Below are positions 1 to 49,130 of a DNA stretch of 64,000 nucleotides, piece by piece (the stretch's first letter is position 1; each line of letters begins with the position of its first letter). The notes beneath the pieces were generated by a model that saw nothing but the letters and a program-made list of their open reading frames with translations, was not told the DNA's origin and made no database searches. Position numbers and translations under genes: made by a program. The DNA comes from a virus (Duplodnaviria > Heunggongvirae > Uroviricota > Caudoviricetes): the IMG/VR virus record IMGVR_UViG_3300037279_000046; one strand, written 5' to 3'.

Positions 1-740
1 CTACTACTGCTGGAGCTGGCGGTGGATCTTCTGGTGGACCAGGCGGAAGTATGGTAACTCTTCCATTTGAACTTATCGTCGTTCCAGGGACCTCTTATAC
101 TATAACCATAGGTACTGGTGGTGCAGGTGGTGCAGGTGGTGCAGGTGGTGTAGCAACTGCTGGTGGATCAATTGGAACTGCTGGTGGCGCAGGTTCATCT
201 GGTACTGCAACTACCTTTGACGTCCTTTTATCCTTCCAACCAGGTCGCGGTGGAACTGGCGGTGGAGGCGGAGGAAGTGGTGGACTTAGTGCTACTGCTG
301 GTGCTGGTGGTTTTGGAACTTATGGCATCTTACCGTTTCAACCGTATGGTGTTGGCGGTGGCGGTGGTGCAGGAACGGCGGGTAATGCTGGTCGCACTAT
401 ATATGGTTCTCAATCTCCATTTTTTGTTAGTGGAGCTGGAGGAGCGGGCGGGGCTTCAGGTGGTGCAGGTGGAGGCGGTGGCGGTGGTGGAAGTTCAGCT
501 GCTCCAGCAGGAGATGCGACTGGCCCAAGCAGCAGCGCTGCTGGAGGAAATGGTGGTGCCTCTGGTTCTAATGGAGGAAATGGTGGTGCAGCTTCATCTG
601 CTATATCAGGCTCTGGTGGTGGAGGTGGCGGAGGTGGCGGAGGTGGTGGTACACTTGCAACGACTGGATCCACTGGCGGCATCGGAGCAAATGGAGCAGC
701 TGGAAGTAACGGTCAAATTATTGTTCAGTGGGTTGAATGA
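1..740 (+). CDS. glycine-rich repeat protein, 5' partial (reading frame open to the window start)
   Basis: No in-frame stop upstream of Met51. Composition is almost pure Gly/Ala/Ser/Thr. Motif PFELIVVPGTSYTITIG matches VTVVPGTTYTITIG of the next gene, and the C-terminus GQIIVQWVE is shared. Confidence 0.65.
   Translation, partial: TTAGAGGGSSGGPGGSMVTLPFELIVVPGTSYTITIGTGGAGGAGGAGGVATAGGSIGTAGGAGSSGTATTFDVLLSFQPGRGGTGGGGGGSGGLSATAGAGGFGTYGILPFQPYGVGGGGGAGTAGNAGRTIYGSQSPFFVSGAGGAGGASGGAGGGGGGGGSSAAPAGDATGPSSSAAGGNGGASGSNGGNGGAASSAISGSGGGGGGGGGGGGTLATTGSTGGIGANGAAGSNGQIIVQWVE
121..151. repeat. tandem 9-bp repeat GGTGCAGGT x3 inside the Gly-rich gene
   Basis: Direct tandem repeat visible in the sequence; further imperfect GGN-rich repeats run through both Gly-rich genes. 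Confidence 0.8.
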
Positions 741-824
741 AAAAATACAATTACTTTCAAGTTTTACCTTTGACTGTAGGCCAGAATCTATCCATAATTC
801 ACACATTATATACATTAATGGCGG

Positions 825-1721
825 TTGTCAATGTCTAAATATGTAAAACGAATTTTCACGTCTTCTGGAACCTGGACTTGCCCTGCTGGCATTACGAATA
901 TAACTGTTATCGGGAGAGGTGGCACTGCCGGAGGTAGTGGTGGAGGAGGAGGCGGTGGTGGTGGTGGAAGTTCTAATGGAGGTGGTGGTGGATCTGCTGG
1001 TTCTTCTGGACCCGCTAATATATCTTTACCGTATCCCGTCACTGTCGTTCCCGGAACTACTTATACGATCACTATCGGGGCAGCAGGAACTGCAGGCAGC
1101 GGAGGCGCTGCTGGAACAATAACAGGTCAAGGTGGTACAGGAGGTCAAGGTGGACCAGGTGGCAGTAGTTCTTTTGGGTCTTTGGTTTCATTTTTAGGAT
1201 CTGCATATGATGGTTCCACTGTAGGTGGAGGAGGAACTGCTGCTGGAGTGGGAGCTATTTATTATGACAGCACCTCTCCAAAAGCATTTGGAACATTTCA
1301 ATCATCTGGTCTATCTTTACTATATGCATGTGGAGAAGGTGGTACAGGAGGAGCAGCATCTACTGCAGGTGGCAATGCGACTGATACAACAACATTAGTA
1401 GGAGCACTTTCTCCTTTCTTCTTGGCTGGAAGTGGTGCGTTGGGAGGAACTGCCGGTGGTGTTAACGGAGGCGGAGGTGGTGGAGCTGGTGCGAGTGGCG
1501 GCGCTGGAGATGCACCATCCAATATTGGAGCAGCTGGTGGCAATGGTGGTACCTCTGGAGTTGCTGGTAGTGCGGGAGCAAATGCTTTACCTTCCACCGC
1601 TGGATCTGGTGGACTAGGTGGTGGAGGAGGAGGCGGTGGCGGATCAGGTGCCGCTGGAGGGAAGGGTGGCAATGGTAGTGCGGGAAGTTCTGGACAAATT
1701 GTCGTATTGTGGGTAGAGTAA
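825..1721 (+). CDS. glycine-rich domain protein, paralog of the upstream gene; possible fibre or structural protein
   Basis: TTG start. N-terminal SGTWTCPAGITNITVIGRGG motif typical of phage/viral Gly-rich domain proteins, long GGxGG runs, C-terminal GQIVVLWVE. Confidence 0.7.
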   Translation: MSMSKYVKRIFTSSGTWTCPAGITNITVIGRGGTAGGSGGGGGGGGGGSSNGGGGGSAGSSGPANISLPYPVTVVPGTTYTITIGAAGTAGSGGAAGTITGQGGTGGQGGPGGSSSFGSLVSFLGSAYDGSTVGGGGTAAGVGAIYYDSTSPKAFGTFQSSGLSLLYACGEGGTGGAASTAGGNATDTTTLVGALSPFFLAGSGALGGTAGGVNGGGGGGAGASGGAGDAPSNIGAAGGNGGTSGVAGSAGANALPSTAGSGGLGGGGGGGGGSGAAGGKGGNGSAGSSGQIVVLWVE

Positions 1722-5218: not shown

Positions 5219-5635
5219 CTAGCTCTTATTGGGTCTGGTGTGTTCCACCAGACCCTTTATTTTTTCAGCCACGTATTCCGGATCGTTAAGTAATCGATTC
5301 AATCCGGAGGGGTGGGGCAATTCATAAAAGTTCACACCTAGCATCTTCAATGCGGTAGCGGCAGTTTTTCCTACAGCTATAATTGGTACATCTTTGTGGT
5401 GTGCAATGATCATTGCAAGATGGTTAAGTCTACCCTTGATCTCTTTCATCGTCAGTTGTCTATTGCCTGGTGTTGGTGTATTGACCAGATTGTGCATAAT
5501 AGATATGTTTATCCCTGCCTTTTCAATCCATTCGTGCAACGTTTTACCACTACCGGTGGACATATCGAATGCTCCATTGCCCTTAGACGCTTGCGATGGA
5601 TTAGATCCAATGAATAAAGCTGTGCGCGGTTTCAC
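5219..5635 (-). CDS. uracil-DNA glycosylase superfamily protein with atypical motif 1
   Basis: HPSGLN matches the UDG family-4 motif B (HPSPLN). Motif A is GSNPS instead of GEGPG, which is more like MUG GINPG. Overall spacing matches the UDG fold. Confidence 0.55.
   Translation of the reverse strand: MKPRTALFIGSNPSQASKGNGAFDMSTGSGKTLHEWIEKAGINISIMHNLVNTPTPGNRQLTMKEIKGRLNHLAMIIAHHKDVPIIAVGKTAATALKMLGVNFYELPHPSGLNRLLNDPEYVAEKIKGLVEHTRPNKS
5231..5266 (+). terminator. Rho-independent terminator
   Basis: Hairpin GGGTCTGGTG-TGTTC-CACCAGACCC followed by TTTATTTTTT. Confidence 0.65.
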
Positions 5636-6732
5636 GATGTCCTCGGTTTAATCTGTAAATGATAAAAATCACCAACCGTAGAGCAATTGATTTCTAAGTC
5701 TAGCATGGCTGAACTATCTTCAAAGTCACTATATTTTTCTTTAAAATAAAACTCACTTATGCCTGCCTGCCACAACATTCTGATACACTTAGTGCAAGGA
5801 GATAGGGTGCAATAAAGTATACAATCACCAGTCTTAACTCCTGATCGCACTGCGTTACATAATAAGTTTGTTTCTGCGTGTATTATATAATTATATTTTT
5901 CTGGACGAGATGTGGGTAGAGAACTGTCTGGTCCACCCCTAACGAACCCATTAAAACCTTCTGCCGTAACCGCTAATGTTTTAGGGTCTATTAATAGGGC
6001 TGCAACTTTAGTATGTATGTCGTGTGACTGTGACGCTATAACTACAGCTCTATCGTGATAGATTTTAAGTTTTTTCTCTGAGATCGGGTTATTGGTTTGG
6101 TTAAACTTGTTATTTTTAACTATTCTCTGTATTTGTTCTAAAAAATGTGTTGCAGAGTAATCTAATTTCATAGTGTTGCAAGTAGCACAACTTGTGACAC
6201 AGTTTGATGTTTGGTACCCAATAGAGTTATCCAATCTATCGATTCCATTGTATTTAACTATTGTGTGTTTATTTTTTTGAATGTTGGCAGGGGAAGCGTC
6301 ACAGTAGAAACAATTTTGAAAAATAAGCCCCTTAAACTCATCTAAGGTTAGATTAAAATCATAATTTCTAGCCTTAGCATTGCCCTTATAATCTAGAAAA
6401 ATATTATTGATAGATGTCGTTTTTAGCTGTTCGTCTGTTCGAGCATATCTATTGCCACAGTGGCCACATCCACTTGAGGTGCCATTAATTAAACTTGCAA
6501 CTTTTATTGACTTAAGAACACCACATTTACACTTTACATCTACATATCGTGTTTTTTTTGATTTTAAGTTTATCTTAATGTAAGGAAGAGACATTATTGT
6601 CCATTTATTTATGACAGAATTTAAGGCAATATTCTCTGTCTTAGATGGACGTTTCATACTCTTATTTAACCTCTGCCTACAAAGGCATTTCTCTATCTTT
6701 GATTCACACGTAGGATAGATACACCGACGCAT
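5632..6732 (-). CDS. HNH endonuclease fused in frame to dCMP deaminase
   Basis: N-terminus has a Cys-rich zinc ribbon plus YNGIDRLDNSIGYQTSNCVTSCATCN (HNH). C-terminus has HAETNLL...LSPCTKC (cytidine/dCMP deaminase Zn motifs H-A-E and PCxxC). No Met separates the two halves. Confidence 0.75.
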   Translation of the reverse strand: MRRCIYPTCESKIEKCLCRQRLNKSMKRPSKTENIALNSVINKWTIMSLPYIKINLKSKKTRYVDVKCKCGVLKSIKVASLINGTSSGCGHCGNRYARTDEQLKTTSINNIFLDYKGNAKARNYDFNLTLDEFKGLIFQNCFYCDASPANIQKNKHTIVKYNGIDRLDNSIGYQTSNCVTSCATCNTMKLDYSATHFLEQIQRIVKNNKFNQTNNPISEKKLKIYHDRAVVIASQSHDIHTKVAALLIDPKTLAVTAEGFNGFVRGGPDSSLPTSRPEKYNYIIHAETNLLCNAVRSGVKTGDCILYCTLSPCTKCIRMLWQAGISEFYFKEKYSDFEDSSAMLDLEINCSTVGDFYHLQIKPRTS

Positions 6733-7781: not shown

Positions 7782-8045
7782 TTATTCCTCCGGATCGAGT
7801 TCAGTTGACGAGATACTATCTTCTTTAGCTTCTAAGTCATCGATGATGCTCTGTGCACCAACAAATACACGATGTGGATCGTGAGTCACCTTCTTAAGGC
7901 GTTTCATTTTAACTTTTTGCTTGATCTTTCCACGGATAGGACAATTAAACTCTACTTCAACTTCCACGATCTCTTCAATTGTCGGGTCTTCGAATACATG
8001 CTTCTTTTTGTTTTTAGCACCCTTGGGTCTAGCCATTATTTCCAC
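7782..8045 (-). CDS. hypothetical basic protein
   Basis: 87-aa ORF, Lys-rich. Confidence 0.45.
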   Translation of the reverse strand: MEIMARPKGAKNKKKHVFEDPTIEEIVEVEVEFNCPIRGKIKQKVKMKRLKKVTHDPHRVFVGAQSIIDDLEAKEDSISSTELDPEE

Positions 8046-8572
8046 TCCGTATCAATAATCTGTTGCAATGCCATTGTGTATGCCTTGATGGGCCCTGGTA
8101 CTTTGCGCGTATACGCGTACGAACACCATTCTTTGTACGATCCTTGAATAATCAAGGTTGTATATATGTTAATGGGGGTAAGGACCTGTGATACAAACGC
8201 ATCTGCGCCATCTGCTTGATAGGCTCTGGGATTGATAAGAAGGGCAGCAGTTGTGCGAGAAATATCATTAGAGATCGCTTGTGCTGTAACGACGTCGCTT
8301 CCTCCAAGCTGAGCTGCCGAAGGGATATATGCTTCTGACTCGACATCTGCATTCTCCGTGTTGATGATCTTAAATGCAAACTTAGATAGGTCTAGCTGAA
8401 CAAACAGTGGACACTTCATAACTACAGTGAGTGACCCCAAGTCTTCAAGAACAGTAGGGTATTTACCAAAGAAGAACTCTTGATCTATATCTCTTAGTTT
8501 CTGAGTGGTATTGCAGCTATCGATAAGGGCAACGAAGCCCTTATCGAGAACTGGTATCTTATTGAGTAGCAT
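8036..8572 (-). CDS. hypothetical protein
   Basis: 178-aa ORF, overlapping start/stop with neighbours. Confidence 0.5.
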   Translation of the reverse strand: MLLNKIPVLDKGFVALIDSCNTTQKLRDIDQEFFFGKYPTVLEDLGSLTVVMKCPLFVQLDLSKFAFKIINTENADVESEAYIPSAAQLGGSDVVTAQAISNDISRTTAALLINPRAYQADGADAFVSQVLTPINIYTTLIIQGSYKEWCSYAYTRKVPGPIKAYTMALQQIIDTEWK

Positions 8573-9051
8573 TACAGGTCCTCGTCTTCCTCTTCGACCT
8601 TAGCTTCTTCTTCTTCTTCTTCTTTTTTCTGAGCAAAAGGATTATTCTCGTTGTCGTCTTCAGCAATACCTGCACGACAAGTGTAATCCTTAACGTCGTC
8701 AAACACGCCATCGAGCATCGACTCAGTAATGATGTCTTGGAAGTGAGCTTCGATATAATCAACCGTGTTCTCGTCCAAGATCTTCATAGCAGCAGCCAGA
8801 TCTTTTTGCAAGATAACAACTTTAGCATGATGCTGGTGATCTTTCCACATGATGCCGACAGTCTCACACATCTCTTCAAATGTGAAGACGCCGCGGATCG
8901 TAGAGGGTAAGAACTTAGCTTTAGAGCGATCGCCTGAGCTAACAGCCACGAGGAATGATTCTGATTTAAGGGAAGAGAGATCCATCGTCTCTAATTCACC
9001 AATGAAATCATCTCCGGTCTTAACTGGCAAGTTCATATTTGGATCAGACAT
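8572..9051 (-). CDS. hypothetical protein with poly-Glu C-terminal tail
   Basis: 159 aa; the (GAA)n run at about 8596-8640 encodes KKEEEEEEAKVEEEDEDL. Confidence 0.5.
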   Translation of the reverse strand: MSDPNMNLPVKTGDDFIGELETMDLSSLKSESFLVAVSSGDRSKAKFLPSTIRGVFTFEEMCETVGIMWKDHQHHAKVVILQKDLAAAMKILDENTVDYIEAHFQDIITESMLDGVFDDVKDYTCRAGIAEDDNENNPFAQKKEEEEEEAKVEEEDEDL

Positions 9052-9245: not shown

Positions 9246-9506
9246 CTAAAACAGTGAAGTGGCTCTTAGCTGAACCAGTTCAGCTTGTTCTGCTGGAGTC
9301 AACGGCTGCATGAGCTGGCCAAGCAGTGTCGTAATTTGTGACACAGTTAGAGTACTCGTACCAGTTGTAAGCTGCGGCATACCAAGGCCACCGATATTAT
9401 TGTTGTTGCCGCCAGGAATCGGCTGATTCTGGTTCAACATATCGTTTAGATCTTTTGTAAGCTGATCTATTGGATCGTCTTTTTTATCGAATGGCCACAT
9501 ACTCAC
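9246..9506 (-). CDS. hypothetical protein
   Basis: 86-aa ORF, Asn/Gln/Thr-rich, overlaps the upstream gene end. Confidence 0.35.
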   Translation of the reverse strand: MSMWPFDKKDDPIDQLTKDLNDMLNQNQPIPGGNNNNIGGLGMPQLTTGTSTLTVSQITTLLGQLMQPLTPAEQAELVQLRATSLF

Positions 9507-10300
9507 ACCTCACCGAGCATCTTTTTTACCATCTCTTCGTTCTTCTCATAGATGTGTAAGCTGTGCACAGTGTGAGTGTAATGTCCTTTAGTGAGGTTAG
9601 GATACACATCTTTAAGTTCTGCAACCATCTTATCCATGAGACCGCAGAACCACGGAAGGTCGTATACAAGACCCAGAGTGAGATCGTTCGAGCGCATGAC
9701 GACAGATAGATGTAACTGGTCGTTGCGGATCAAGAAGTTGCCATGCATCGTGCAAGTCTGATCCTTATTGCCGACCCACTGATGTTCTGGAAGAGAGAAA
9801 CGTAGGATAGCCTGACGAGTATCTTTATCAGCAAGAAGAGACTGCTTCGCCCACTCCCAAGGAGTGCGCATAACGTTTTCTTCTACTAGGAAGTGCGCAG
9901 TTTCTCCGTTTTCGTAGACACCTTCGTGGACAACTGTTTGGCGCTCAAAATGAGATCCGCTTGACTTTTTAGACCAGATAAGATGGCCGTACGCGCTGTT
10001 AACAGTGCCGTCAGGGTTAGCGAGACTGAGCCAAAATTTTGAGGCTCGTCCGAAATCCTCTGCAGAATTCGTGCAGGAATCATATAGCTCCACTTCTTTC
10101 CGGGTGTATGAAGCAATAGTTTCGTTGCGCTTTGGATCTCGAGTAACGATAGGATCATCAGTAGGTCCCAAAACCCGGAATGAGTAGTCGAGTACTTCTC
10201 TGCAAGGTTGCCCGCGTGGCGCGCTCTTGACGTCAGGGTTGTAGTAGACATCCGCGAGGGTACCGAGATAGGCTTCCGAGACATTTTTATATACTTTCAT
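9503..10300 (-). CDS. thymidylate-synthase-fold pyrimidine hydroxymethylase/methylase homolog; predicted dCMP hydroxymethylase-like (Asn to Asp specificity switch)
   Basis: Aligns to the ThyA core: QTCTMHGNF vs PCHAFFQF (catalytic Cys), MRSNDLTLGLVYDLPWF vs QRSCDVFLGLPFNIASY. The PFN Asn is replaced by Asp, as at Asp179 of T4 gp42. Confidence 0.75.
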   Translation of the reverse strand: MKVYKNVSEAYLGTLADVYYNPDVKSAPRGQPCREVLDYSFRVLGPTDDPIVTRDPKRNETIASYTRKEVELYDSCTNSAEDFGRASKFWLSLANPDGTVNSAYGHLIWSKKSSGSHFERQTVVHEGVYENGETAHFLVEENVMRTPWEWAKQSLLADKDTRQAILRFSLPEHQWVGNKDQTCTMHGNFLIRNDQLHLSVVMRSNDLTLGLVYDLPWFCGLMDKMVAELKDVYPNLTKGHYTHTVHSLHIYEKNEEMVKKMLGEV

Positions 10301-10326: not shown

Positions 10327-11013
10327 CTAATACTCTTTGGTCATTAGTTCTAATTCAGCCGAGTAAATGTTTGAGCGAAGAAGCTCGACGAAGAATACAC
10401 TCTGGTGTGACTCAATCTCAAAACCCTTCTTGATGTATTTAGTGAGGCGACGAATGCTAACCCCACGTGGAACGGGATTGAAGCAGATCTTCTTCTGAGT
10501 GCAGTCTTCCATAGAGCCTGCAACTACATAAAGAACACCTAGATTGGGATCGATCGCCATGGAGCAAGCGCGAATGTCAAAACGAGAGATAAGGTGGGCA
10601 GGCGAAGTGTGCTCTACTCCGTAGATCAAGTTTACTTTCTGTGAACCTAGATGACCGTATGCGCACATAGGATTAGTAAAGTCAAAGTGTGCGGCATTAA
10701 GTTTAGCAAACTCCTGAGCAAGTTCTTTGGTCTGGAAGTATAGATCGATATCGTCGTACGTGAGTATGAGTCCAGCTAGCTGTTTAGCAACGATGCTCAT
10801 TACGTATGAACCAGAGATAAGTGTGCCAAACGGAAACTTAACTCCGGTGTTTATGTTTATAGAACCTTTGCGCACTTCTACGTTAGCATCGTAGTCATCC
10901 ATCAGAAGAGCGCTGCCGAGATGTGACAGTTGCTCTTTATATAGAGCTTCACCCTTTTTGATATCTTGAACAAGAGGAATAAAGAACTTAGGGTTGATTA
11001 AGAAATCGCTCAT
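10327..11013 (-). CDS. hypothetical protein
   Basis: 228-aa ORF with a GS...DxD-like segment (LGSALLMDDYDAN, DIDLYF); a nucleotidyltransferase fold is possible but not established. Confidence 0.5.
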   Translation of the reverse strand: MSDFLINPKFFIPLVQDIKKGEALYKEQLSHLGSALLMDDYDANVEVRKGSININTGVKFPFGTLISGSYVMSIVAKQLAGLILTYDDIDLYFQTKELAQEFAKLNAAHFDFTNPMCAYGHLGSQKVNLIYGVEHTSPAHLISRFDIRACSMAIDPNLGVLYVVAGSMEDCTQKKICFNPVPRGVSIRRLTKYIKKGFEIESHQSVFFVELLRSNIYSAELELMTKEY

Positions 11014-11544
11014 GCTTTCTCCAGATATTGAATAGCTCTGATAAGAGTGTTTATATTCTCTTTAGAGTTGCCAATCATCACGTTGCAATTGAAACATAAA
11101 AGCCCTCTCACTTTACCTGTCGTATGACAATGATCAACATGGAACCTAGAACTAAACTCTGATGCATATCTTTCACAGACTCCGCATTTGTTGTCTTGAG
11201 AATGAAGCAATAGTTCATAGGCCATGATAGCTTCTTTAGGAGATAATTCTGGCCAATACTTAGTTAAGTGGTGACCTTTATTGTTTCTTTTTTTCTTGTA
11301 CGGTATTTAAAGATTTCCAATTTGCTTTTAACTTAGAAATAAACTCTGGATTATTTTCACGATAGTTTTTCGAAGTTTGACAAGTGCATTCGCGACATGA
11401 AGGCTCTAAACCATCTTTTGCTTTTTTCTTTTTATTAAAAAGCTTTAAAGGTTTAGGTGTTTTGCACTTTGTACAAACTTTATTTTTCACTATCATGCTC
11501 CCACAAAGTCTCCTCAATGTTCGCGTGCCACACACCGTATCCAT
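11010..11544 (-). pseudogene. Endonuclease VII-like gene split across two frames (frameshifted copy of the 29241/45050/49887 family)
   Basis: ORF 11278..11544 encodes the Cys-rich N-terminal zinc-ribbon half; ORF 11010..11225 encodes VDHCHTTGKVRGLLCFNCN (the Endo VII core). The two halves are in different frames with a 52-nt gap. Confidence 0.5.
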
Positions 11545-11968
11545 AACGCTTCTTGGTGAGACGCTTCATCATCTGACCAGTGCGATTAAACAAGTGTTGG
11601 AACACAAACGTGGATTCCTTGACAGAGCGACCTTCTTTAGTACGGTAGTTAGGATTGTAATTGTAGAGTGCAATACAAACTTCCGTGCGAAGATGCTGGC
11701 GAATATCATTCAAGGACATACCAGTGTTTCCAAGGGAATTATCCCCTTGACCTTTCTTGGTGTTCGCCTCGTTCCAGTTCTTAGCAACGTTATCGCGGAT
11801 ATACTTTTCGACCATAGGCTCGTACTTAAGAATGTCTTCGTTTGTCAAGGTGCGGTCATACTTGTTAAAGTTCTTAACCGGCTTCTCGTCATTTTCTTCT
11901 TCAGACTCTTCGACTTCTACCCCGAGGTCAATGAGCGTCTCTTCGGTATCAGAATTATCGTTGTTCAC
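11480..11968 (-). CDS. hypothetical protein
   Basis: 162-aa ORF with an acidic N-terminus; its 3' end overlaps the Endo VII N-terminal fragment ORF. Confidence 0.45.
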   Translation of the reverse strand: MNNDNSDTEETLIDLGVEVEESEEENDEKPVKNFNKYDRTLTNEDILKYEPMVEKYIRDNVAKNWNEANTKKGQGDNSLGNTGMSLNDIRQHLRTEVCIALYNYNPNYRTKEGRSVKESTFVFQHLFNRTGQMMKRLTKKRYGYGVWHANIEETLWEHDSEK

Positions 11969-17784: not shown

Positions 17785-19212
17785 TTACACCTTTACAGGA
17801 TAAGCACGAGCACGCACTTGATCCAGAGTTGATTGGTTAGTCAACACACCGTTCAAGAAGACCTGCTCAAGCAGTCCACCTTTTTCGTCAGCAGCAGATA
17901 CTTGATCTGTTGTGACGTAACGACCGTTGATGAAATCAAGACGCATTCTACCCTTGTGCGATTTCTTGCCCGAGTCAGTAATAGGGTCCTTAACGATGTC
18001 GCGCTCTTCTCCATTAACTTCTACGTAAGTGGTCTTAACAGCGAAGCCTTGGTCGTCACGGCTGTGCGATTGCAACAGCAATCCACCAACACCGATAACG
18101 AGATTAGAAGACGCAAATCCCATGCCCTTTAGACGCGCGAGGATGCACTCGTAACGGTCAAAATACATTCCGTCGCCGTAGATCAGGCCTACTTTAGGAT
18201 TCAATTCTTGGAAGCCTAATGCGTTCGTTGTCGTACCGAACTGGCGAGCCAACAGACGCATAGCACCGAGGTTCTCAGCAGAACCAGCAGGAGCAGACGG
18301 GTTTCCACAGATGATGAGCTCTGGGTCACCAGAGTCCGGGCGGAATACCACTTTGCCGTCACGAGCCATGATGCGCTTGTAAAGTACCTGAGTGAAGTTC
18401 TCAAGAACATTCCACAGGTTATAGGTATCAGACACGATAGAGACGATGCCGGTAGGGTAAGTGTTGAGCATGTGCTCAAACGCCTTCAACTCATGTTCCT
18501 GACCGTACGAACACATAACTGAGTGCTCAGATGCAGGGACAGAAGCACCGATAAGGCCAGTCGCAGCGTAGTTCTCCATCAAGAACTTAACAGCCGGAAC
18601 GGTATCTGTTCCACGGAAGTTGATCAAGTGAGCAGCACCAGAGATAGCCGCAGTCTCCTCAGACGAGCAACCACGGTATCCGAAGTCATGGACAGCCCAA
18701 TCGCAGTGGAGACGGTTGCCTACAGTTTCATCCGCGTATGTGTCTACAAGGTTACGCAACTTCATAGAGTACGAACCAACAGTTGTCGGGTTCCATACTT
18801 TAAGAACGAGCGACTCAAAGAAGCCAACTGTCCAAGCGAAGTCAGGATGAGTATTGGTCATCGTGAGAAGAACGTTCTTAACGGGCAGAACAGTTCCTTC
18901 TGGAACAGCTTTGATCTCCAAGGGGATATAACCAAGGTCTGCCAATGCGTGCATCTTTTCAAAGATGTGGCGCGGGGTAGGTCCGAGAATCGATTCACGT
19001 ACCTGCAAGAACTCGTTCACCATTGGGTGAGTGATCTTCTGTGCCAAGTAGTTCTTCAAGATAGGCTGAAGCCCATTGAAGAGCGTGAACGGAATCTTCT
19101 TGTCGGAGCGAGCAACGAGATAGGCGTAGGCCTTAGTGATCCCCTCTGGGAACTGCTCCATGTGCCCCATCTTATATACGTCAGTGCAAAGTAATACGTT
19201 ATCGTTAATCAT
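17785..19212 (-). CDS. nadV: nicotinamide phosphoribosyltransferase (NAMPT/NadV family)
   Basis: 475 aa with DFGYRG, GTDTV and FRPDSGDP, the hallmark NAMPT/NAPRT type II PRT motifs. Confidence 0.85.
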   Translation of the reverse strand: MINDNVLLCTDVYKMGHMEQFPEGITKAYAYLVARSDKKIPFTLFNGLQPILKNYLAQKITHPMVNEFLQVRESILGPTPRHIFEKMHALADLGYIPLEIKAVPEGTVLPVKNVLLTMTNTHPDFAWTVGFFESLVLKVWNPTTVGSYSMKLRNLVDTYADETVGNRLHCDWAVHDFGYRGCSSEETAAISGAAHLINFRGTDTVPAVKFLMENYAATGLIGASVPASEHSVMCSYGQEHELKAFEHMLNTYPTGIVSIVSDTYNLWNVLENFTQVLYKRIMARDGKVVFRPDSGDPELIICGNPSAPAGSAENLGAMRLLARQFGTTTNALGFQELNPKVGLIYGDGMYFDRYECILARLKGMGFASSNLVIGVGGLLLQSHSRDDQGFAVKTTYVEVNGEERDIVKDPITDSGKKSHKGRMRLDFINGRYVTTDQVSAADEKGGLLEQVFLNGVLTNQSTLDQVRARAYPVKV

Positions 19213-19220
19213 GTTTCTCC

Positions 19221-19463
19221 TTAAAAGTTAAATGTAGCTGTTACGTAGAAGCGGACTTCGCCCTCGTCTTCTTCTACTGAGTAGTCGAACGTTGTACCAT
19301 CATCAAAATGTTCTGCGAGAGCATCAACCTTAGCCTGCGCAAGAGTGTGCTCCACAGACATATCAACCCCTGGGATCTTCTTCACAACGTGAATTGGTTT
19401 CTTCTTCTTAGGGTCGATGGTATCGCTCACGCTTCCACCATATCTGGATCGCAGACGATCCAA
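19221..19463 (-). CDS. hypothetical protein
   Basis: 80-aa ORF between nadV and the macro gene; overlaps the macro gene 3' end. Confidence 0.4.
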   Translation of the reverse strand: MDRLRSRYGGSVSDTIDPKKKKPIHVVKKIPGVDMSVEHTLAQAKVDALAEHFDDGTTFDYSVEEDEGEVRFYVTATFNF

Positions 19464-19936
19464 TTGATTCTTGGATAATCTTTTAAGAGGATTTCAAGGA
19501 TAAGTTCTGAGTCTTTCCAAGGTACAGCGAACAGACCAGAGTTAAACTTATTAGAGTAGACGTCGATCTGTGGGTACGTGTCGCTTGGGTGGGCGAGATA
19601 GATCTTACGTAAGAGATCACGGAGAGCTAGAGTTGTATTGATCTTGATCTCTTCTACGCCGTCTTTCTTAGGTCCGTAGTCATGAGATGTAACGATCCAG
19701 CCGACCCAGTGAGCTTCGGATTCAGGGAACGATGATAGACCAGCAAGACCTACAGCCGTTCCACGCTGCATGTTAGCAGACTCGCAGAACATCTTGTAGT
19801 CGAGAAAGCTCTGAAGATACTTCTCTTTGAAAGGCTTGGCAATGCCAGAACCCCAGACACCCTGCGAGTTGCAGGCATGAATGATTACACTCTCACGAGG
19901 AGCGTCAAAGAGACTCATCTTCTTGTGGGTTACCAT
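19427..19936 (-). CDS. macro domain protein (ADP-ribose-binding or -processing)
   Basis: VIIHACNSQGVWGSGIAKPF matches the macro-domain N-x6-GGGVxxAI-type motif. Confidence 0.7.
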   Translation of the reverse strand: MVTHKKMSLFDAPRESVIIHACNSQGVWGSGIAKPFKEKYLQSFLDYKMFCESANMQRGTAVGLAGLSSFPESEAHWVGWIVTSHDYGPKKDGVEEIKINTTLALRDLLRKIYLAHPSDTYPQIDVYSNKFNSGLFAVPWKDSELILEILLKDYPRINWIVCDPDMVEA

Positions 19937-20754
19937 ACTTTATATCCTTCCGGGTTCCTGAGCAGAGAGTTCGTGGTGTGAATATCACGGATCCCTGCAT
20001 CAAATAATACCTGCTTCCCTTTTGAGAATAGTCCGTGTGAGACTGCTAGGTCGATTGGTCCTGTCTTATATTCTTTAAGTGCTTCAGCTACTTTGATGAA
20101 GGTCATCCCGCCGTCGCAGATGTCGTCGATGATTAGGACACTCTTGCCGTAGAGATCCTGGTGAGATGTATTAACTTTAAGTCCAGTGATCTCGCCCGTC
20201 TGCTGGTTGCGAACCTTCTCGCACCAGATGAACTGCTTACCAGTGGTCTTAGCGTAGCGCTCAGCTGCGCCTTTGTCTGGGTAACATACAAAGTCATAAC
20301 CGATGGTGTTAAACAGAGTCTGATGAAACTCTTTGGGAGTTGTAGACTCCATTGGAAAGACGAGATCAGACTTGGAGTGTGGGTCAAAAGCCTCGATGCG
20401 CGTGATACCTGCGTTATATAGGATCTCTGTGAATGTCTTGAGCGCGAAGCTCAACTTATTGTTTACTTCCTTATCTTGACGAGCGTAAGGAAGATAAGGA
20501 CATACAAGATCAACACTGGTATCGAAAACGTCATAGCATAACTGCGCCACTTGGCATACTTGGATTAACTCAGCTTCATTCTCAAACAGCCATAGTATAT
20601 ATGTGACGCTGTTCGGATCCATCTTTGACTCATCAATCTTCCAGACCTGGGAAGTTCCATCTGGAAAGATGGTTATCGTAAAACTTACTTCTTCGCCGTC
20701 GCTGATGAGCTTAATCATGTGTTCTCTCCCAGTAAGAAATCTAAGTGGCGCCAC
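19930..20754 (-). CDS. prs: ribose-phosphate pyrophosphokinase family (PRPP synthetase or ADPR-pyrophosphokinase-like)
   Basis: PRPP-binding loop VLIIDDICDGGMTF plus LPYARQDK. Confidence 0.85.
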   Translation of the reverse strand: MAPLRFLTGREHMIKLISDGEEVSFTITIFPDGTSQVWKIDESKMDPNSVTYILWLFENEAELIQVCQVAQLCYDVFDTSVDLVCPYLPYARQDKEVNNKLSFALKTFTEILYNAGITRIEAFDPHSKSDLVFPMESTTPKEFHQTLFNTIGYDFVCYPDKGAAERYAKTTGKQFIWCEKVRNQQTGEITGLKVNTSHQDLYGKSVLIIDDICDGGMTFIKVAEALKEYKTGPIDLAVSHGLFSKGKQVLFDAGIRDIHTTNSLLRNPEGYKVW

Positions 20755-21215
20755 ATAGCATCGTGCTCGCCGTCTTTCTTGAGCATCAGCTTGAAGTGCG
20801 GATACTCTTTCTTGTACATGTCAAGCTGTTTCGCTTGATCTAGTACAGACCGTTCTACGTTTGCTATACGGTCAGCCAGCTTCAGGGTCGTAGCCTCTCT
20901 AGAGGCTTGAATCTTAGGGTAGGTCTTTTCGTGACGCTCTTTGCGGTTCTTACCAGGCTCGTTTGTTACTCGGTGAACTAGATCTGCTACATGCCTACCG
21001 AATGTAATCTCGATCTGGAACACTGTTGCATCTGTGTCTTCGACTACATCATGCAACCAGGCTGCGACCTGAAGGTCCTCGCTATCAAACTTGAAGCGGC
21101 GCAAGACTTCAGCTACGGCAGCGAGATGCTCTGTGTAGGGAGAATTCTCCCCGTATTTCTGGTCTTTGTGCTTTGCTGCTGCAAATGCCGCTGCTGCTTG
21201 AATAGCGAGGCTCAT
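20715..21215 (-). CDS. HD-domain phosphohydrolase, SpoT/Mesh1-like (p)ppGpp-hydrolase-type
   Basis: KDQKYGENSPYTEHLAAVA...AAWLHDVVEDT matches the RelA/SpoT HD hydrolase pattern. Confidence 0.6.
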   Translation of the reverse strand: MSLAIQAAAAFAAAKHKDQKYGENSPYTEHLAAVAEVLRRFKFDSEDLQVAAWLHDVVEDTDATVFQIEITFGRHVADLVHRVTNEPGKNRKERHEKTYPKIQASREATTLKLADRIANVERSVLDQAKQLDMYKKEYPHFKLMLKKDGEHDAMWRHLDFLLGENT

Positions 21216-32653: not shown

Positions 32654-34045
32654 TTATTTTCTATGGCTTGTACTACCATCAGGACATTTTACTGTGTCAC
32701 CCAAATTTTTCATTGGGTGGTCTTCTGTTCCGCCCTTAGAGATAATCCATAGTATTTGAGGAGGATTTTGACCTGGTCTAAGCCATGACTCCCAGTCAAC
32801 CTTACTGTAACATCCATCGGTAATAAAAATATTAAGATCACCTTTGCGCTTAAATACATCCTCAAGCGACTTAGTGAGATCTGTACCACCAGACTGAATC
32901 ATAGATTTGTCAATCTTCGTGCCCATCTTGTACTGCTGACGTCCGTAGAGATCAGTGTGGAAGAACGAGAGGTTACACTTTCGTGCGCCAACCTTCAAGA
33001 ACTGATCCACGATCTCAAGGAATTCATTCAACTCCTCAGTGCTGATAGAACCAGACGTATCGAGGTGAAGCTCAAGCTTAGGCAGATCGCCTACTTTAGT
33101 GCCTGGAGCTTTGAAGCCCAGACGCTTGTTCTTGCGCATCCACGTGCCTTTGCGGTTGTGACCGTTGGCGTGTTTCTTCATCGCCATCAAGATCAACGCT
33201 TTGTAGTTCAACTCAGCACGGCGAGTCTTGATGTCCTCAAGAAGATCTTTGACGTGACCAGGGAGATCGTCGTATGACAGACGAGCTTTAACCATTGCAC
33301 GTTTTACGAGCTCTTCAGTAGCATCGAGCATCTCTTTTTCGTCGCCAGCGCCATCCCACATGTGTTCGTCGATCGTCTGTGGAAGGTCACCAGTCTCAGC
33401 TCCGCCACCAGCATTGCCCTGACCTTCGCCATCGCCATCGCCATCTTCTGGATCTTCAAAGCGCTTGATCAATTTCTCGTAGTAATGTTCCATGGTCTGA
33501 ACAGTCTGCCAAGGAGTCTTGGTGCCAGTCTTTTCATCTACGTCATGGTAATGAGCTACATCGATACACTGGCCTGGGCAAAGCTCATTGGGGCAAGGCT
33601 GACCGTCTTTAGTACACTGTGGGCAACCAGCAGGAAGATCCTTAATGAATTGATTGATCGCCATATCAGCTGCGATGTTCATGAGCATGCGCTTACGAGC
33701 GCTGATCTTCATGAACGGAACGCGCAATGGATGCTTATGTGTGATGTGAGAAAGTTCATGAATAAACACGGCTTTACGCTGAGCTGCGTTCAATTTCTTA
33801 CAGAAGAAGTACGGATTTACCAACATATCCCAGCGCTTAGCATCTGTATTGAACATGATACCGGCTGTAGGAAGTTGGTGGGAATAGGAGATTGTCAAGC
33901 ACTGCAGAACCGATCCTAAGAACGGGTGCGTTTTTGAAGTCTCATAGATGGTAGTGGCCAAGCATTGGGATTTCTCCTCAACTGGCACGAACTCTTTGTC
34001 CATCTGCTTTTTAATCTCTTTAGGATCTCTAATTCTTGATGACAT
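32654..34045 (-). CDS. VWA-domain protein with N-terminal HExxH metallopeptidase-like domain (MoxR partner; CobT/DUF2201-VWA-like)
   Basis: FIHELSHITHKH (HExxH) in the N-terminal half; MIDAS motif DTSGSIS in the C-terminal half; acidic Gly/Asp linker. Confidence 0.7.
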   Translation of the reverse strand: MSSRIRDPKEIKKQMDKEFVPVEEKSQCLATTIYETSKTHPFLGSVLQCLTISYSHQLPTAGIMFNTDAKRWDMLVNPYFFCKKLNAAQRKAVFIHELSHITHKHPLRVPFMKISARKRMLMNIAADMAINQFIKDLPAGCPQCTKDGQPCPNELCPGQCIDVAHYHDVDEKTGTKTPWQTVQTMEHYYEKLIKRFEDPEDGDGDGEGQGNAGGGAETGDLPQTIDEHMWDGAGDEKEMLDATEELVKRAMVKARLSYDDLPGHVKDLLEDIKTRRAELNYKALILMAMKKHANGHNRKGTWMRKNKRLGFKAPGTKVGDLPKLELHLDTSGSISTEELNEFLEIVDQFLKVGARKCNLSFFHTDLYGRQQYKMGTKIDKSMIQSGGTDLTKSLEDVFKRKGDLNIFITDGCYSKVDWESWLRPGQNPPQILWIISKGGTEDHPMKNLGDTVKCPDGSTSHRK

Positions 34046-34094
34046 ATAATTGTCTCCCTCGTTACACTACTATTGTATCAGCACGAGTCGCCCC

Positions 34095-34149
34095 CGGTTA
34101 AAGAAAAGGAACCAACCTGGGTGCTAGGGAGGAGTCACACCCAGGTTGG
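34095..34149 (-). terminator. Rho-independent terminator/attenuator between the AAA+ and VWA genes
   Basis: Minus-strand 12-bp hairpin CCAACCTGGGTG...CACCCAGGTTGG followed by TTCCTTTTCTTTAA. Confidence 0.5.
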
Positions 34150-34160
34150 TATAGTCGCTA

Positions 34161-35300
34161 TTACTTAGTCTTTTTATCGACGCCAGTAGCACGACTGATT
34201 TTGATATTGTCTTTAAGGACTTTAACCAGTTCAGGATGGCGGCCAGTGAACTCTTTGAAGAAGTTCGTGATCTGACCTTTCGACTGCTTGTAACCACATT
34301 GTTTGATGAGGTTTACAGCGTGATCGGCAGGGATGATCTTGGCAACTTCTGCCATTATATCCTCGTCGATCTGGTCAGCCTTACAATCTTTCTTCAAACC
34401 ACCGTAGTATTTCTCGATGGACTCAACAGTTGCAGCGATCATATCGCCTTGGTATGTCTGTGGATCCGACATAGAGACGAGACGCTTCATTGCTGCAGAA
34501 CGATCTTTCAACAAATCCTGAGCAGTAACCGGAGCCGAGTCGTAGCAGAACTTGTGGTATTCGTTACCGATGTCTTTACCGAGGATCGAGCAGACAGTCA
34601 AACGGTGAAGAGCGCGGTTCTGATTGACACCAGCAAGCTCAGCAGCGTTAACTTTCGACCAAGTACGTGAAGAGATGTACTTGCCGTCTTTACCGATCTC
34701 TTTCGTGGACTTGTAAGTCCAGATACCAGAAGACACGAACATTTGGACAGAATCATGCCAGTTGGCAGCGTCCATGAAATCGATGAACGCAACGTGGTCG
34801 AATTCAACTTCGAACTCAACGAAACGATCTTTAAGAGCAGCATCCATTGTGTTGACATCGTACTCAGACGAGTCAGGGTTGATACATGAAGCAATCATCC
34901 AACCTGCGGGAACTGTGTAGTTGTGGACTTTGAAATCGGTCAACAGCTGCATTAAACAATTCATGACGCCAGTTGTTCCACGATTCGGTTCTTCAAGAAG
35001 GATCAAGCCTTCACCTTCAGTTGGCCAGAATTCAGGGAGCAAATGCTTCGTACGAGCAAGACCGTTCACGTCAACGCCTTCTGAAGGGAACCCGATCAAA
35101 TCCGGTGCCTCCATGTATGCGATACGAAGATCGATGAATCCGAAGTTCGGATTACGCTTCTGCTCTTTTTTCACCCATGCTTGGGTGATCTCAGATTTAC
35201 CGAGACCAGCTTCGCCGGTGAAGATAGGGTTGATTGTTTTGCCCATAAGGCGTGACTTATATGCCAGATCCAATACTGCGAAAATGTTACTAGGTTTCAT
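34161..35300 (-). CDS. cobS: MoxR-family AAA+ ATPase (CobS-like, AAA_5)
   Basis: Walker A GEAGLGKS, Walker B ILLEEPNR, sensor/arginine region ALKDRF; the size and architecture match phage cobS genes. Confidence 0.8.
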   Translation of the reverse strand: MKPSNIFAVLDLAYKSRLMGKTINPIFTGEAGLGKSEITQAWVKKEQKRNPNFGFIDLRIAYMEAPDLIGFPSEGVDVNGLARTKHLLPEFWPTEGEGLILLEEPNRGTTGVMNCLMQLLTDFKVHNYTVPAGWMIASCINPDSSEYDVNTMDAALKDRFVEFEVEFDHVAFIDFMDAANWHDSVQMFVSSGIWTYKSTKEIGKDGKYISSRTWSKVNAAELAGVNQNRALHRLTVCSILGKDIGNEYHKFCYDSAPVTAQDLLKDRSAAMKRLVSMSDPQTYQGDMIAATVESIEKYYGGLKKDCKADQIDEDIMAEVAKIIPADHAVNLIKQCGYKQSKGQITNFFKEFTGRHPELVKVLKDNIKISRATGVDKKTK

Positions 35301-36581: not shown

Positions 36582-37412
36582 ATGGCTGCAATCACTGAGC
36601 TAACAGATAATCTGGCATACGGAGTCGATGTAAAAAATCGCCGAATCTACTTTGGTGTTAACTTAGATACAGCAGAGTCCACTGAAGCCACCGACTTTAC
36701 TTTAGCCTCGGTAGAGATGGCTGTTAGAGCCATGCATAGAATGGCTTCGGATGCACCTAATAAACCTATTGAACTACACATGTCTTCGTATGGTGGAGAC
36801 ACGTACGCGATGCTCCGGTTGCACGACGAGATCTTGGCATGCCCTTGTCAGGTTCGCTTCTTCGGAAGCGGTCCTATCATGTCCTCGGCCACTTTTATAA
36901 TGTCTGTCTGTGACGAGCGTAATCTGCATGCTAACACCGTTGTAATGGTTCATGAACTTACTTCTGGTGGCGGTGGAAAACACACTGACATTAAGATCGA
37001 CGCTGCTGAGAACATGCGACTCATGGACCAACTCTGTGGTATCTATGAAGCCAACTCTCGTATGCCCAAGGAGTTCTGGTTAGACATCTGTCAACGGGAC
37101 GTGTACCTGACGGCCGGCGAAGCAGTGTCATTAGGTCTCGCCGATCGCATCTTAGAACCTAAGAAACGTGGTAACTTACGTAAGGCTCGCCAAGTAGCTA
37201 TGCGTAAAGAAGTAGATGTTAAAGAGATGAAGGACTTAGTGAAGAGCTTGTATGAGCGTACGAGCCGCACTCGTATTCCTAAGCTAGAATTCAACGAGAT
37301 CAAGAAAGAAGTAGCTGATCCACATCTGTTCGTAGATGAAAGCAAAACGCCTGAGAAATCCGTCTTGGATGCTCAGGCGCCCATCGTTCAGCTAGATGTA
37401 AAGAAAGATTAG
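36582..37412 (+). CDS. ClpP-fold serine protease paralog 1 (S14/S49-like)
   Basis: IELHMSSYGGDTYAMLRLHDEI ... GSGPIMSSATFIM ... VVMVHE aligns to ClpP INSPGG / GxAASMG / MIHQP. GGTATAATGT motif about 45 nt upstream. Confidence 0.75.
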   Translation: MAAITELTDNLAYGVDVKNRRIYFGVNLDTAESTEATDFTLASVEMAVRAMHRMASDAPNKPIELHMSSYGGDTYAMLRLHDEILACPCQVRFFGSGPIMSSATFIMSVCDERNLHANTVVMVHELTSGGGGKHTDIKIDAAENMRLMDQLCGIYEANSRMPKEFWLDICQRDVYLTAGEAVSLGLADRILEPKKRGNLRKARQVAMRKEVDVKEMKDLVKSLYERTSRTRIPKLEFNEIKKEVADPHLFVDESKTPEKSVLDAQAPIVQLDVKKD

Positions 37413-45571: not shown

Positions 45572-45994
45572 TCATTTAAACTTCTCCACTGCTCTGATTG
45601 CAGAGCTAGAAATATGAACCAAAGTGCGATCACAGATGAAATATACGATCGGAATCGTAAGTCCAAGGTCCTCACACCAGTACTGCTGAGTCTTCTCTGC
45701 ATCTAGATCTTTGCCGTCACGTAGGCCACGAATGATTGCTACTGCGTCAACATGTTTTGCAAAGTCAGGAAGTAGTCCGTCATAAGTTTGCACATCAACA
45801 TACTGATCGTTATATCTAACGTGTTCTGGAATCCTAAAGATTGGATTGTTATTGTGAGGGTTATTGAAGTTCTTTTCTGGGTTATTACCAATGCCAATAA
45901 TAACCTTATCGAACAAGAGCAATGACTTATTTAGTATTTCTTCGTGACCTTTATGCCACGGGTTAAAGCTTCCTGGATATATTGCTACTCTCAT
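45572..45994 (-). CDS. cytidylyltransferase-fold adenylyltransferase (PPAT/CoaD-like; candidate NMN adenylyltransferase)
   Basis: MRVAIYPGSFNPWHKGHEEIL (HxGH motif) and ISSSAIR; closely resembles the E. coli CoaD layout. Confidence 0.75.
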   Translation of the reverse strand: MRVAIYPGSFNPWHKGHEEILNKSLLLFDKVIIGIGNNPEKNFNNPHNNNPIFRIPEHVRYNDQYVDVQTYDGLLPDFAKHVDAVAIIRGLRDGKDLDAEKTQQYWCEDLGLTIPIVYFICDRTLVHISSSAIRAVEKFK

Positions 45995-48782: not shown

Positions 48783-49130
48783 TTACTTGTTATTAACGTC
48801 GAGCGTCTTCTCCAAGTCTTGGTCGAATTGTAAGTCGAATGATACAGCTGCAGTCTCTTCAACAATCTTATTGAACATCTCATCCTTGAAGGCCTGATGA
48901 TCAGTCTCAGAGATAGCTTTGCAGATCTCCAACTTCACTACTTCTTGGTTCTGCCAAGTTGGATCCTTAGCGAATACATCCATGGCAGCCTGTAAGTTAG
49001 CAGGAATTGGGATATTAAAGTGTCTCCAAAAATCAAGAGCGGCATTGCAATCTTCAGGGGAGATTGCGACCTTTTGATCTACTTCGTTTGTTGCTTTTTG
49101 CTCGTTTTGATCCGACATAGGACCTCCCAT
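48783..49130 (-). CDS. hypothetical acidic protein
   Basis: 115-aa ORF. Confidence 0.45.
   Translation of the reverse strand: MGGPMSDQNEQKATNEVDQKVAISPEDCNAALDFWRHFNIPIPANLQAAMDVFAKDPTWQNQEVVKLEICKAISETDHQAFKDEMFNKIVEETAAVSFDLQFDQDLEKTLDVNNK

Follow-up and report, generated by a model that had tools for sequence, protein, structure and literature searches.

A divergent thymidylate-synthase-fold protein of an uncultured phage lineage, predicted to be a dCMP hydroxymethylase

The thymidylate synthase (TS) superfamily includes enzymes that act on cytosine nucleotides, in which an Asp at the position of Asn177 of Escherichia coli ThyA is the cytosine determinant described in the literature. Among them are the deoxycytidine monophosphate (dCMP) hydroxymethylase of phage T4, gp42 (PDB 1B5E, 6A9A), the cytidine monophosphate (CMP) 5-hydroxymethylase MilA of Streptomyces rimofaciens (PDB 5JNH, 5B6D), which belongs to bacterial nucleoside-antibiotic biosynthesis, the 5-hydroxy-dCMP synthases of the RB69 gp48, DLP3 gp80 and HY126 AfhB type (PDB 9IQU) and the 5-methyl-dCMP (5mdCMP) synthases of phages such as Xanthomonas phage Xp12 and Pseudomonas phage PaMx74. 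Here we describe a TS-like protein encoded in a stretch of 64,000 nucleotides from the Caudoviricetes virus IMGVR_UViG_3300037279_000046 (IMG/VR), which is referred to as the window, and we propose that it makes 5-hydroxymethyl-dCMP (5hmdCMP).

The Asp at position 177 is compatible with three chemistries (hydroxymethylation, methylation and 5-hydroxylation), and TS mutants with N177D/N229D methylate dCMP according to the literature, so the initial annotation, which argued from this single residue, needed extending. Other diagnostic positions have been published. An Asp three residues before the catalytic Cys (Cys-3) and a Ser-x-Tyr pair were given as the signature of hydroxymethylation on the basis of the ternary complex of the T4 enzyme (PMC6400193). 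The Cys-3 rule is also stated in PMC13326640, where RB69 gp48 and related enzymes are described as flavin-bound and are diagnosed by the substitution D169N. In MilA, Ala176 and Lys133′ confer the preference for ribose, and A176S/K133R shifts the enzyme to dCMP (PMC5175136).

9503 to 10300, minus strand: TS-like protein of 265 amino acids with an ATG start, predicted folate-dependent dCMP C5-hydroxymethylase (5hmdCMP synthase)

This open reading frame (ORF) had been annotated, with the same boundaries, as a ThyA-fold protein with a catalytic Cys. Both motifs, NKDQTCTMHGNF and MRSNDLTLGLVYDLPWF, are present, and the protein matches Pfam PF00303 (Thymidylat_synt) above the gathering cutoff (E=1.2e-10) and PHROG_160 ('thymidylate synthase', 6e-29). 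Residues were numbered by alignment with E. coli ThyA (a sequence identical to PDB 1AOB and related entries), T4 gp42 (L001), RB69 gp48 (L002) and PaMx74 ThyA (L003), and the equivalences are clear around both motifs. The key residues are E69, W90, S102-x-Y104, R162, D180, C183, T184, R203, S204, D206, D214, H249 and Y251. With respect to E. coli ThyA, E69 corresponds to E58, W90 to W80, Y104 to Y94, C183 to the catalytic C146 (Cys148 in T4), T184 to H147, R203/S204 to R166/S167, D206 to D169, D214 to N177 and H249/Y251 to H207/Y209. The exchange of Asn for Asp at the uracil-reading position, on which the initial annotation was built, is therefore real: D214 takes the N177 position by sequence in the alignment check that had been suggested, and it falls on Asp179 of T4 and Asp186 of MilA in HMMER alignments.

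The TS-like protein shares with T4 gp42 the Thr after the Cys, an Asp at Cys-3 (D180, within N-K-D-Q-T-C; Asp145 in T4), the Ser-x-Tyr pair (S102-A103-Y104; Ser94-x-Tyr96), Glu60 (E69), Arg168/Ser169 (R203/S204), Asp171 (D206) and His216/Tyr218 (H249/Y251). S204 and R162 are of the deoxyribose type (Ser169 and Arg123′ in T4). The C-terminal segment that closes the active site of TS is absent, with 14 residues after the HxY motif compared with 55 in E. coli ThyA and 61 in PaMx74. This segment of about 45-60 residues is kept in the methyl-forming enzymes (E. coli ThyA and the PaMx74 5mdCMP synthase) and is absent from T4 gp42. The TS-like protein and T4 gp42 differ in that they are only about 23-28% identical, in a loop before the Cys that is four residues shorter in the TS-like protein, and in a family-specific insertion of about 30 amino acids (residues ~113-146), which is predicted to form a beta-hairpin. 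The shorter loop gives the spacing of MilA, with which the N-x-D-x-x-C arrangement is identical.

MilA is the best match by both sequence and fold. In a search of PDB chains the E-values were 7e-16 for MilA, 1e-13 for T4 dCMP hydroxymethylase, 3e-3 for the best canonical ThyA and 0.15 for the phage dCMP hydroxylase 9IQU. The MilA match scored 61.9 bits, and a local phmmer search gave 54.8 bits for T4 gp42, 27.8 for PaMx74 and 15.2 for RB69 gp48, with E. coli ThyA not reported. An AlphaFold2 model (43 homologs; mean predicted local distance difference test score (pLDDT) 89.6, predicted template modelling score 0.85) was closest in Foldseek to MilA (1.7e-17; template modelling (TM) score 0.74), followed by the T4 enzyme (2.4e-14), TS (from 2.9e-12) and, at rank 42, 9IQU; the Foldseek probability was 1.00 for MilA, the T4 enzyme and TS. 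MilA also has Asp at the N177 and L143 positions and a strongly similar N-terminal segment (AYL..L.D.Y..P....APRGQ), and differs in being about 60 residues longer at the C-terminus. Among predicted viral structures (BFVD) the best match was A0A7D3QX04, a 'thymidylate synthase/dCMP hydroxymethylase' of the giant virus Fadolivirus (35% identity, TM score 0.83), and the next were homologs from uncultured phages.

The catalytic residues, D214 among them, do not vary in 43 aligned homologs (68-100% identity), and neither do D180 and S102-A-Y104. They are also invariant in 18 IMG/VR relatives (48-82% identity) except for a change of Ser204 to Ala in one (L025), and the full signature is thus present in 17 of the 18. 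A HMMER scan of 1.84 billion cluster representatives returned 3197 relatives with E<=1e-3, of which 114 reached E<=1e-30. Among 134 full-length clade representatives, 118 have every residue of the signature (Asp at Cys-3, Cys, Thr, Ser, Asp169, Asp177); an Asp occupies the 177 position in about 92% of the representatives, and the 169 position is acidic in nearly all.

Two variants occur within the clade. In L025 and a few other members Ser204 is replaced by Ala, the residue of the ribose-preferring MilA. In about nine nested members (P0255, P0287, P0290, P0301, P0305, P0306, P0323, P0332 and P0341) the 177 position holds an Asn and R162 is mostly altered as well, and their sequences predict uracil-specific hydroxymethylases acting on deoxyuridine monophosphate (dUMP).

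Taken together, the signature, the fold ranking, the deoxyribose-type residues, the missing C-terminal segment, the conservation and the gene contexts of relatives (described below) lead to the prediction of a dCMP hydroxymethylase. We consider it likely that the TS-like protein is a homodimeric enzyme, dependent on 5,10-methylene-tetrahydrofolate, that hydroxymethylates C5 of dCMP in the manner of T4 gp42. The initial annotation had reached the same reading in preference to a plain TS, and it held against tests of fold, relatives, signature, deoxyribose residues, methylase and 5-hydroxylase features (two alternatives that it had not considered), conservation and context. Independent lines of computational evidence give good support to the view that the protein, from an abundant and uncultured phage lineage, is a new and divergent pyrimidine hydroxymethylase within the TS superfamily, the kind of enzyme being already known.

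In the proposed mechanism Cys183 would attack C6 of dCMP, and Asp214 would read and protonate the N3/N4 face of the cytosine. Glu69 would help to open the cofactor to the iminium, which C5 would then attack, the water network of Ser102 and Tyr104 would take the C5 proton and tetrahydrofolate (THF) would be eliminated. Asp180 may hold a water where ThyA has Leu143 and, because the C-terminal lid of TS is also lacking, water and not hydride would add to the exocyclic methylene to give 5hmdCMP and THF. Ser204 and Arg162 would favour a 2′-deoxyribose substrate. The 5hmdCMP would subsequently be phosphorylated and built in by the phage polymerase, and 5-hydroxymethylcytosine (5hmC) in the virion DNA is probable. 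A linked dCMP deaminase would provide dUMP from which the phage ThyX makes thymidine monophosphate (dTMP); since both C1 enzymes return THF, dihydrofolate reductase (DHFR) would not be needed.

The TS-like gene lies within a minus-strand block that also holds the deaminase gene, fused to an HNH domain, and a short gene of the uracil-DNA glycosylase (UDG) superfamily, while ThyX and a class II ribonucleotide reductase (RNR) are 42 kb away. Linkage was counted within 10 kb of the TS-like gene in the 18 diverged IMG/VR relatives.

5219 to 5635, minus strand: short UDG-superfamily protein of 138 amino acids, far below the family-4 UDG cutoff; 12 of 18 relatives
5632 to 6732, minus strand: in-frame fusion of an N-terminal HNH/Endo VII-like domain and a dCMP/cytidine deaminase domain (residues ~223-348)
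51797 to 52534, minus strand: ThyX, flavin-dependent thymidylate synthase (PF02511, E=6.7e-45; RHR...SQRY motif), the phage's own route to dTMP
52582 to 54471, plus strand: class II (B12-type) RNR

The deaminase gene is within about 3 kb of the TS-like gene in this phage and near it in 16 of the 18 relatives. The initial annotation had linked the two, and such pairing is statistically tied to cytosine-modified genomes in the literature: a position within 3 kb (<=3 kb) of the TS gene is found for 70% of deaminase genes on cytosine-modified contigs versus 6% on unmodified ones. Its assignment of ThyX as the source of dTMP, and the argument drawn from this against a plain TS, were equally sound. 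T4 likewise has a separate dTMP synthase and a dCMP deaminase in the same genome, but its dTMP enzyme is the ThyA-type td.

The extra N-terminal domain of the deaminase, of about 200 amino acids, is related to a free-standing HNH gene at 51175-51771 (minus strand). In relatives the deaminase (as an ORF cluster) is a stand-alone protein of about 150 amino acids, so the fusion looks like the insertion of a homing endonuclease. The second BFVD match of the TS-like protein, A0A8S5MQL3 from an uncultured myovirus, is a natural fusion of a TS-like domain and a CMP/dCMP deaminase domain, in parallel to the linkage of the two genes in this phage.

The remaining parts of a T4-type toolkit are encoded directly next to the TS-like gene in relatives that share its signature, among them a homolog of gp56, which removes deoxycytidine triphosphate (dCTP) as a dCTPase.

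L026, 1858 to 2340: gp56-like dCTPase
L027, 9426 to 10004: kinase-like ORF
L047, 19588 to 20001: kinase-like ORF
L047, 22298 to 23554: beta-glucosyltransferase homolog

In L026, which is 60% identical and has another phage backbone (SU10-like), an ORF of the dUTPase_2 family, 32% identical to the RB69 gp56 dCTPase, overlaps the start of the TS-like gene. In L027 (57% identity) the overlapping ORF resembles P-loop deoxynucleoside monophosphate/thymidylate kinases, and ThyX is just upstream. In the 462-kb phage LR756500.1 (38% identity) a kinase-like ORF precedes the TS-like gene, and a homolog of the T4 beta-glucosyltransferase (PF09198, 6.7e-23) is found 1.4 kb downstream with sugar-nucleotide genes nearby. 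Genes 42 and beta-gt of T4 itself are arranged in the same way as the TS-like and beta-glucosyltransferase genes of the relatives.

Several points weigh against the assignment of the TS-like protein as a dCMP hydroxymethylase feeding DNA synthesis. Characterised enzymes are only about 25% identical to it. The equivalence of D180 and Leu143 comes from sequence spacing (Cys-3) and not from residue-level superposition, and the Cys-3 rule is correlative, as the PaMx74 5mdCMP synthase has an Asn and no bulky hydrophobic side chain there. The second inter-subunit phosphate-binding Arg (the R127 equivalent; Arg124 in T4) is Gln163 throughout the clade, unlike in T4 gp42, MilA and TS. Finally, no dCTPase, hydroxymethyl-dCMP kinase or glycosyltransferase was found in about 94 of the approximately 175 kb of the genome (the 64-kb window, 10 kb on each side and 10 kb of a close relative), so that, unlike in T4, homologs of the adjacent beta-glucosyltransferase, gp56 and gp1 were not found in this part, and for this lineage the incorporation of 5hmC is no more than probable and full replacement of cytosine no more than possible.

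The search for partners also used known and candidate homologs: RB69 gp56, the L026 dCTPase, the L027 and L047 kinase-like ORFs, RB69 p045 and the T4 and L047 beta-glucosyltransferases gave nothing below E=0.5 against all ORFs of the window and flanks. Together with negative domain searches, this agrees with the earlier observation that the window has no obvious gene for a kinase or glucosyltransferase. Large structural genes lie in the 10 kb to the left of the window, and the ORFs in the 10 kb to its right are small and lack domains. In the further 10 kb, from the relative with 82% identity in the TS-like protein, a NUDIX protein was the only candidate seen. This protein of 510 amino acids (L035:2657-4189, minus strand), just past the right end of the window in the close relative, could decap RNA or could be a nucleotide pyrophosphatase that might remove dCTP. 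The HD-domain protein at 20715-21215 was set aside as a candidate dCTP remover because it resembles SpoT/RelA hydrolases and lies within a cluster of NAD (nicotinamide adenine dinucleotide) and PRPP (phosphoribosyl pyrophosphate) genes, and Pfam matches to 'Serglycin' were an artefact of added Gly-Ser linkers. On the roughly 94 kb covered, hypermodified DNA, which the initial annotation had named, is unsupported for this phage, where inference extends to 5hmdCMP synthesis and probable 5hmC.

It is unlikely that the enzyme makes 5hmdCMP or 5-hydroxymethyl-CMP with an end point other than 5hmC in DNA, whether through conversion by the deaminase to 5-hydroxymethyl-dUMP (5hmdUMP) or through a ribonucleotide product as with MilA and BcmA. 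Such an end point would fit the rank of the CMP hydroxymethylase MilA as the single best structural and sequence match, the linkage of the deaminase in most relatives, the reported conversion of 5hmdC nucleotides to 5hmdU by some phage deaminases encoded beside TS(Asp) genes, the MilA-like Ala of L025 and a few clade members, and the Asn177 members, predicted to be 5hmdUMP synthases. The TS-like protein itself, though, carries the deoxyribose-type Ser204/Arg162 where MilA has Ala176/Lys133′, the very residues whose exchange turns MilA to a dCMP preference. The presence of ThyX makes the deaminase an obvious source of dUMP, like cd in T4, and the pairing of relatives with a gp56-like dCTPase and a beta-glucosyltransferase homolog makes sense only for 5hmC in DNA.

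Methylation of dCMP, as in Xp12 and PaMx74, would lead to DNA with 5-methylcytosine (5mC) and not 5hmC, and we regard it as improbable. The fold and Asp177, taken alone, fit the 5mdCMP synthases equally well, a neighbouring deaminase of the dCMP family is typical of 5mC phages, five of seven tested TS homologs of this Asp-bearing kind made 5mdCMP (literature), and PaMx74 ThyA gives a detectable match. Its 27.8 bits are far exceeded by the scores of the two hydroxymethylases (61.9 and 54.8), and the PaMx74 enzyme keeps the long C-terminal segment. PaMx74 also has Asn at Cys-3, Pro at the 147 position and Ala-x-Tyr, where the TS-like protein has Asp180, Thr184 and Ser102-x-Tyr like T4 gp42; these methylase features were taken from the PaMx74 and E. 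coli ThyA sequences and not from a formal published definition. The gene cluster of PaMx74-type phages includes a MazG-like pyrophosphohydrolase and DHFR, which is needed when folate is oxidised, whereas no DHFR was seen here and the TS of this phage is ThyX. A member of the clade is furthermore paired with a homolog of T4 beta-glucosyltransferase, whose family acts on 5hmC.

A flavin-dependent 5-hydroxy-dCMP synthase of the RB69 gp48, DLP3 gp80 and HY126 AfhB type, feeding a pathway to O-glycosylated 5-hydroxycytosine, is very improbable. These phage-encoded enzymes also use dCMP and share with the TS-like protein the ThyA fold, Asp177, an acidic Cys-3 residue, the short C-terminus and, in RB69 gp48, the Thr after the Cys. 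They differ in the bound flavin, the use of O2 and the diagnostic D169N, which is absent here, D206 being invariant in the 43 close homologs and the 18 viral relatives. The folate-site residues L209/G210/Y213 are TS-like and conserved, and RB69 gp48 has V/V/L in their place. The low score of RB69 gp48 and the poor rank and E-value of 9IQU point in the same direction. An ordinary TS converting dUMP to dTMP redundantly with ThyX, the label that source annotations, PHROG and Pfam names and most databases give to the homologs, is hardly credible in view of the changes N177 to D, H147 to T and L143 to D, the loss of the C-terminal closing segment, the weak best match to a PDB ThyA and NCBIfam scores of <=33 bits against thymidylate-synthase equivalog cutoffs of 108-427 bits.

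Two further genes are closely linked to that of the predicted dCMP hydroxymethylase.

8036 to 8572, minus strand: degenerate ThyX-fold paralog of 178 amino acids, two genes downstream of the TS-like gene; 16 of 18 relatives
8572 to 9051, minus strand: protein of 159 amino acids with no assigned function and an acidic Glu/Asp C-terminal tail; linked in 16 of 18 relatives

The stop of the 159-amino-acid gene overlaps the start of the ThyX-fold gene (translationally coupled). The 178-amino-acid protein has no match in Pfam (including Thy1), PHROG or NCBIfam, but a profile of 42 homologs matches Thermotoga maritima ThyX (TM0449) over the full length (E=3e-5), and its AlphaFold2 model (pLDDT 81.6) matches ThyX in Foldseek (1.3e-10, TM score 0.74-0.78). 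Compared with the T. maritima enzyme, RHR is replaced by S-K-F, the dUMP-binding segment Ser88-Gly-Arg90-Tyr91 and the H51-P56 loop with His53, which binds flavin adenine dinucleotide (FAD), are deleted, and Arg147 is Gln129. With the catalytic, dUMP- and FAD-binding residues lost, the protein is not a thymidylate synthase. It has invariant residues of its own (Cys54-Pro55, Asp103, Arg106, Asn114, Tyr118, Asp121 and Trp149).

The 159-amino-acid protein matched nothing in Pfam, PHROGs, NCBIfam, the PDB (profile search) or phage records, and the idea that it is a divergent all-alpha dCTPase was rejected (hhalign probability 0.1%). Neither protein occurs in any deposited phage, and the pair is not beside the homolog in LR756500.1 and is therefore lineage-specific. 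The two relatives without the pair are L026 and L027, precisely the ones whose TS-like gene is abutted by a gene for a dCTPase or kinase. This pattern, which rests on two loci, is suggestive. A literature search for a ThyX paralog tied to cytosine modification gave nothing relevant. As a tentative and rather doubtful extension, the TS-like, 178- and 159-amino-acid proteins may form a new nucleotide-level module, with the two linked proteins in place of the dCTPase or kinase genes next to the homologs in other phages. The ThyX-fold protein would have been neofunctionalised as an enzyme of pyrimidine nucleotides or as a specificity subunit. It might then derivatise, channel or discriminate 5hmdCMP, giving a new cytosine derivative or control of the pool, and this pseudo-enzyme offers a concrete and testable way into a step not yet described.

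Upstream of the TS-like gene are the following features.

10327 to 11013, minus strand: protein of 228 amino acids directly upstream, with a weak precomputed match to PF26128 (Gad2); 5 of 18 relatives
11010 to 11225, minus strand: Endonuclease VII-type HNH gene, absent from some otherwise identical contigs (for example L004 versus L005)
11480 to 11968, minus strand: protein of 162 amino acids with no assigned function; about 15-16 of 18 relatives keep the region close to the TS-like gene

The 228-amino-acid protein is not a core partner, given its presence in so few relatives. We take Gad2 to be an anti-Gabija family, and the G-S...D-D-I-D-L pattern of the protein is presumably nucleotidyltransferase-like. 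The presence/absence polymorphism of the HNH gene marks it as a mobile insertion and not as part of the pathway. Several homing or Endo VII nucleases are indeed present, as initially annotated, but they do not count as evidence for base modification, one of them being merely present or absent between otherwise identical contigs. The same applies to the UDG-like gene, which exists as annotated but lends no support to modification. On visual inspection its first motif is G-S-N-P-S, where the Asn is that of MUG/SMUG-type enzymes in contrast to the family-4 G-E-A-P-G, and its second is H-P-S-G-L-N. Deamination of 5hmC gives 5-hydroxymethyluracil, a base that enzymes of the SMUG type excise; that the UDG-like protein acts on this base here is speculation.

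The exact TS-like protein is encoded by at least 22 contigs, which come from assemblies of JGI, ENA and Logan. Several of these are about 175 kb long (174,848-175,284 bp) with differing start points, which indicates a complete, circularly permuted genome. No homolog above 38% identity was found in any deposited phage, a nucleotide search with the 4.5-kb region against 50,697 phage records gave no match, searches with the RNR and the MoxR ATPase found no cultured relative, and an exact 40-mer scan of IMG/VR for the remaining genome was also negative. The sole match among 185,579 species genomes was a 147-kb phage-like contig (L031, LNEN01000305.1) with an 82%-identical TS homolog, deposited within a metagenome-assembled genome of a Cytophagales bacterium; it looks like a phage genome binned with its possible host. 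The host is possibly a member of the Bacteroidota, for which the Cytophagales binning is a weak hint and with which the 60% identity of the class II RNR to a Maribacter phage protein is consistent.

The clade, with its 114 clusters at the stricter threshold, has no characterised member and is about 25% identical to MilA and T4 gp42. A single D/N change appears to switch its members between cytosine and uracil, and the clade is accordingly a good place to look for new pyrimidine hydroxymethylases. If the prediction is right, an abundant and widespread uncultured phage lineage with hundreds of close relatives replaces or supplements cytosine with 5hmC. This would alter the behaviour of its genomes in restriction-based, bisulfite/enzymatic and nanopore analyses and would shape which host defences are evaded or triggered.

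Elsewhere in the window, a small ORF of 88-90 amino acids at ~59765-60037 (minus strand) has a precomputed match to PF26761 (Acb5) and is a possible anti-defence gene. The NAD-related cluster at 17785-21215 (minus strand) encodes a nicotinamide phosphoribosyltransferase, a Macro-domain protein, a PRPP-synthetase-like protein and the SpoT/RelA-type HD hydrolase, and a cytidylyltransferase-like gene of the NMNAT type (45572-45994, minus strand) is 25 kb from it. Three ClpP-family protease homologs and a subtilase are encoded at 36582-37412 (plus strand), 46455-47147, 47180-48004 and 49130-49846 (all minus strand), and a MoxR-type ATPase with a DUF2201 VWA/metallopeptidase pair at 32654-35300. 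Two extremely glycine-rich ORFs of 229 and 298 amino acids at 51-1721 (plus strand), on the edge of the structural module, have a G+C content of 50% compared with about 44% elsewhere and are probably fibre or collagen-like virion proteins. Paralogous early proteins of about 150-170 amino acids (MSKMSQKEAV...) are present in at least two copies here (61477-61992, minus strand, and L011:815-1276), and two copies are found in the related 147-kb contig (L035, L042).

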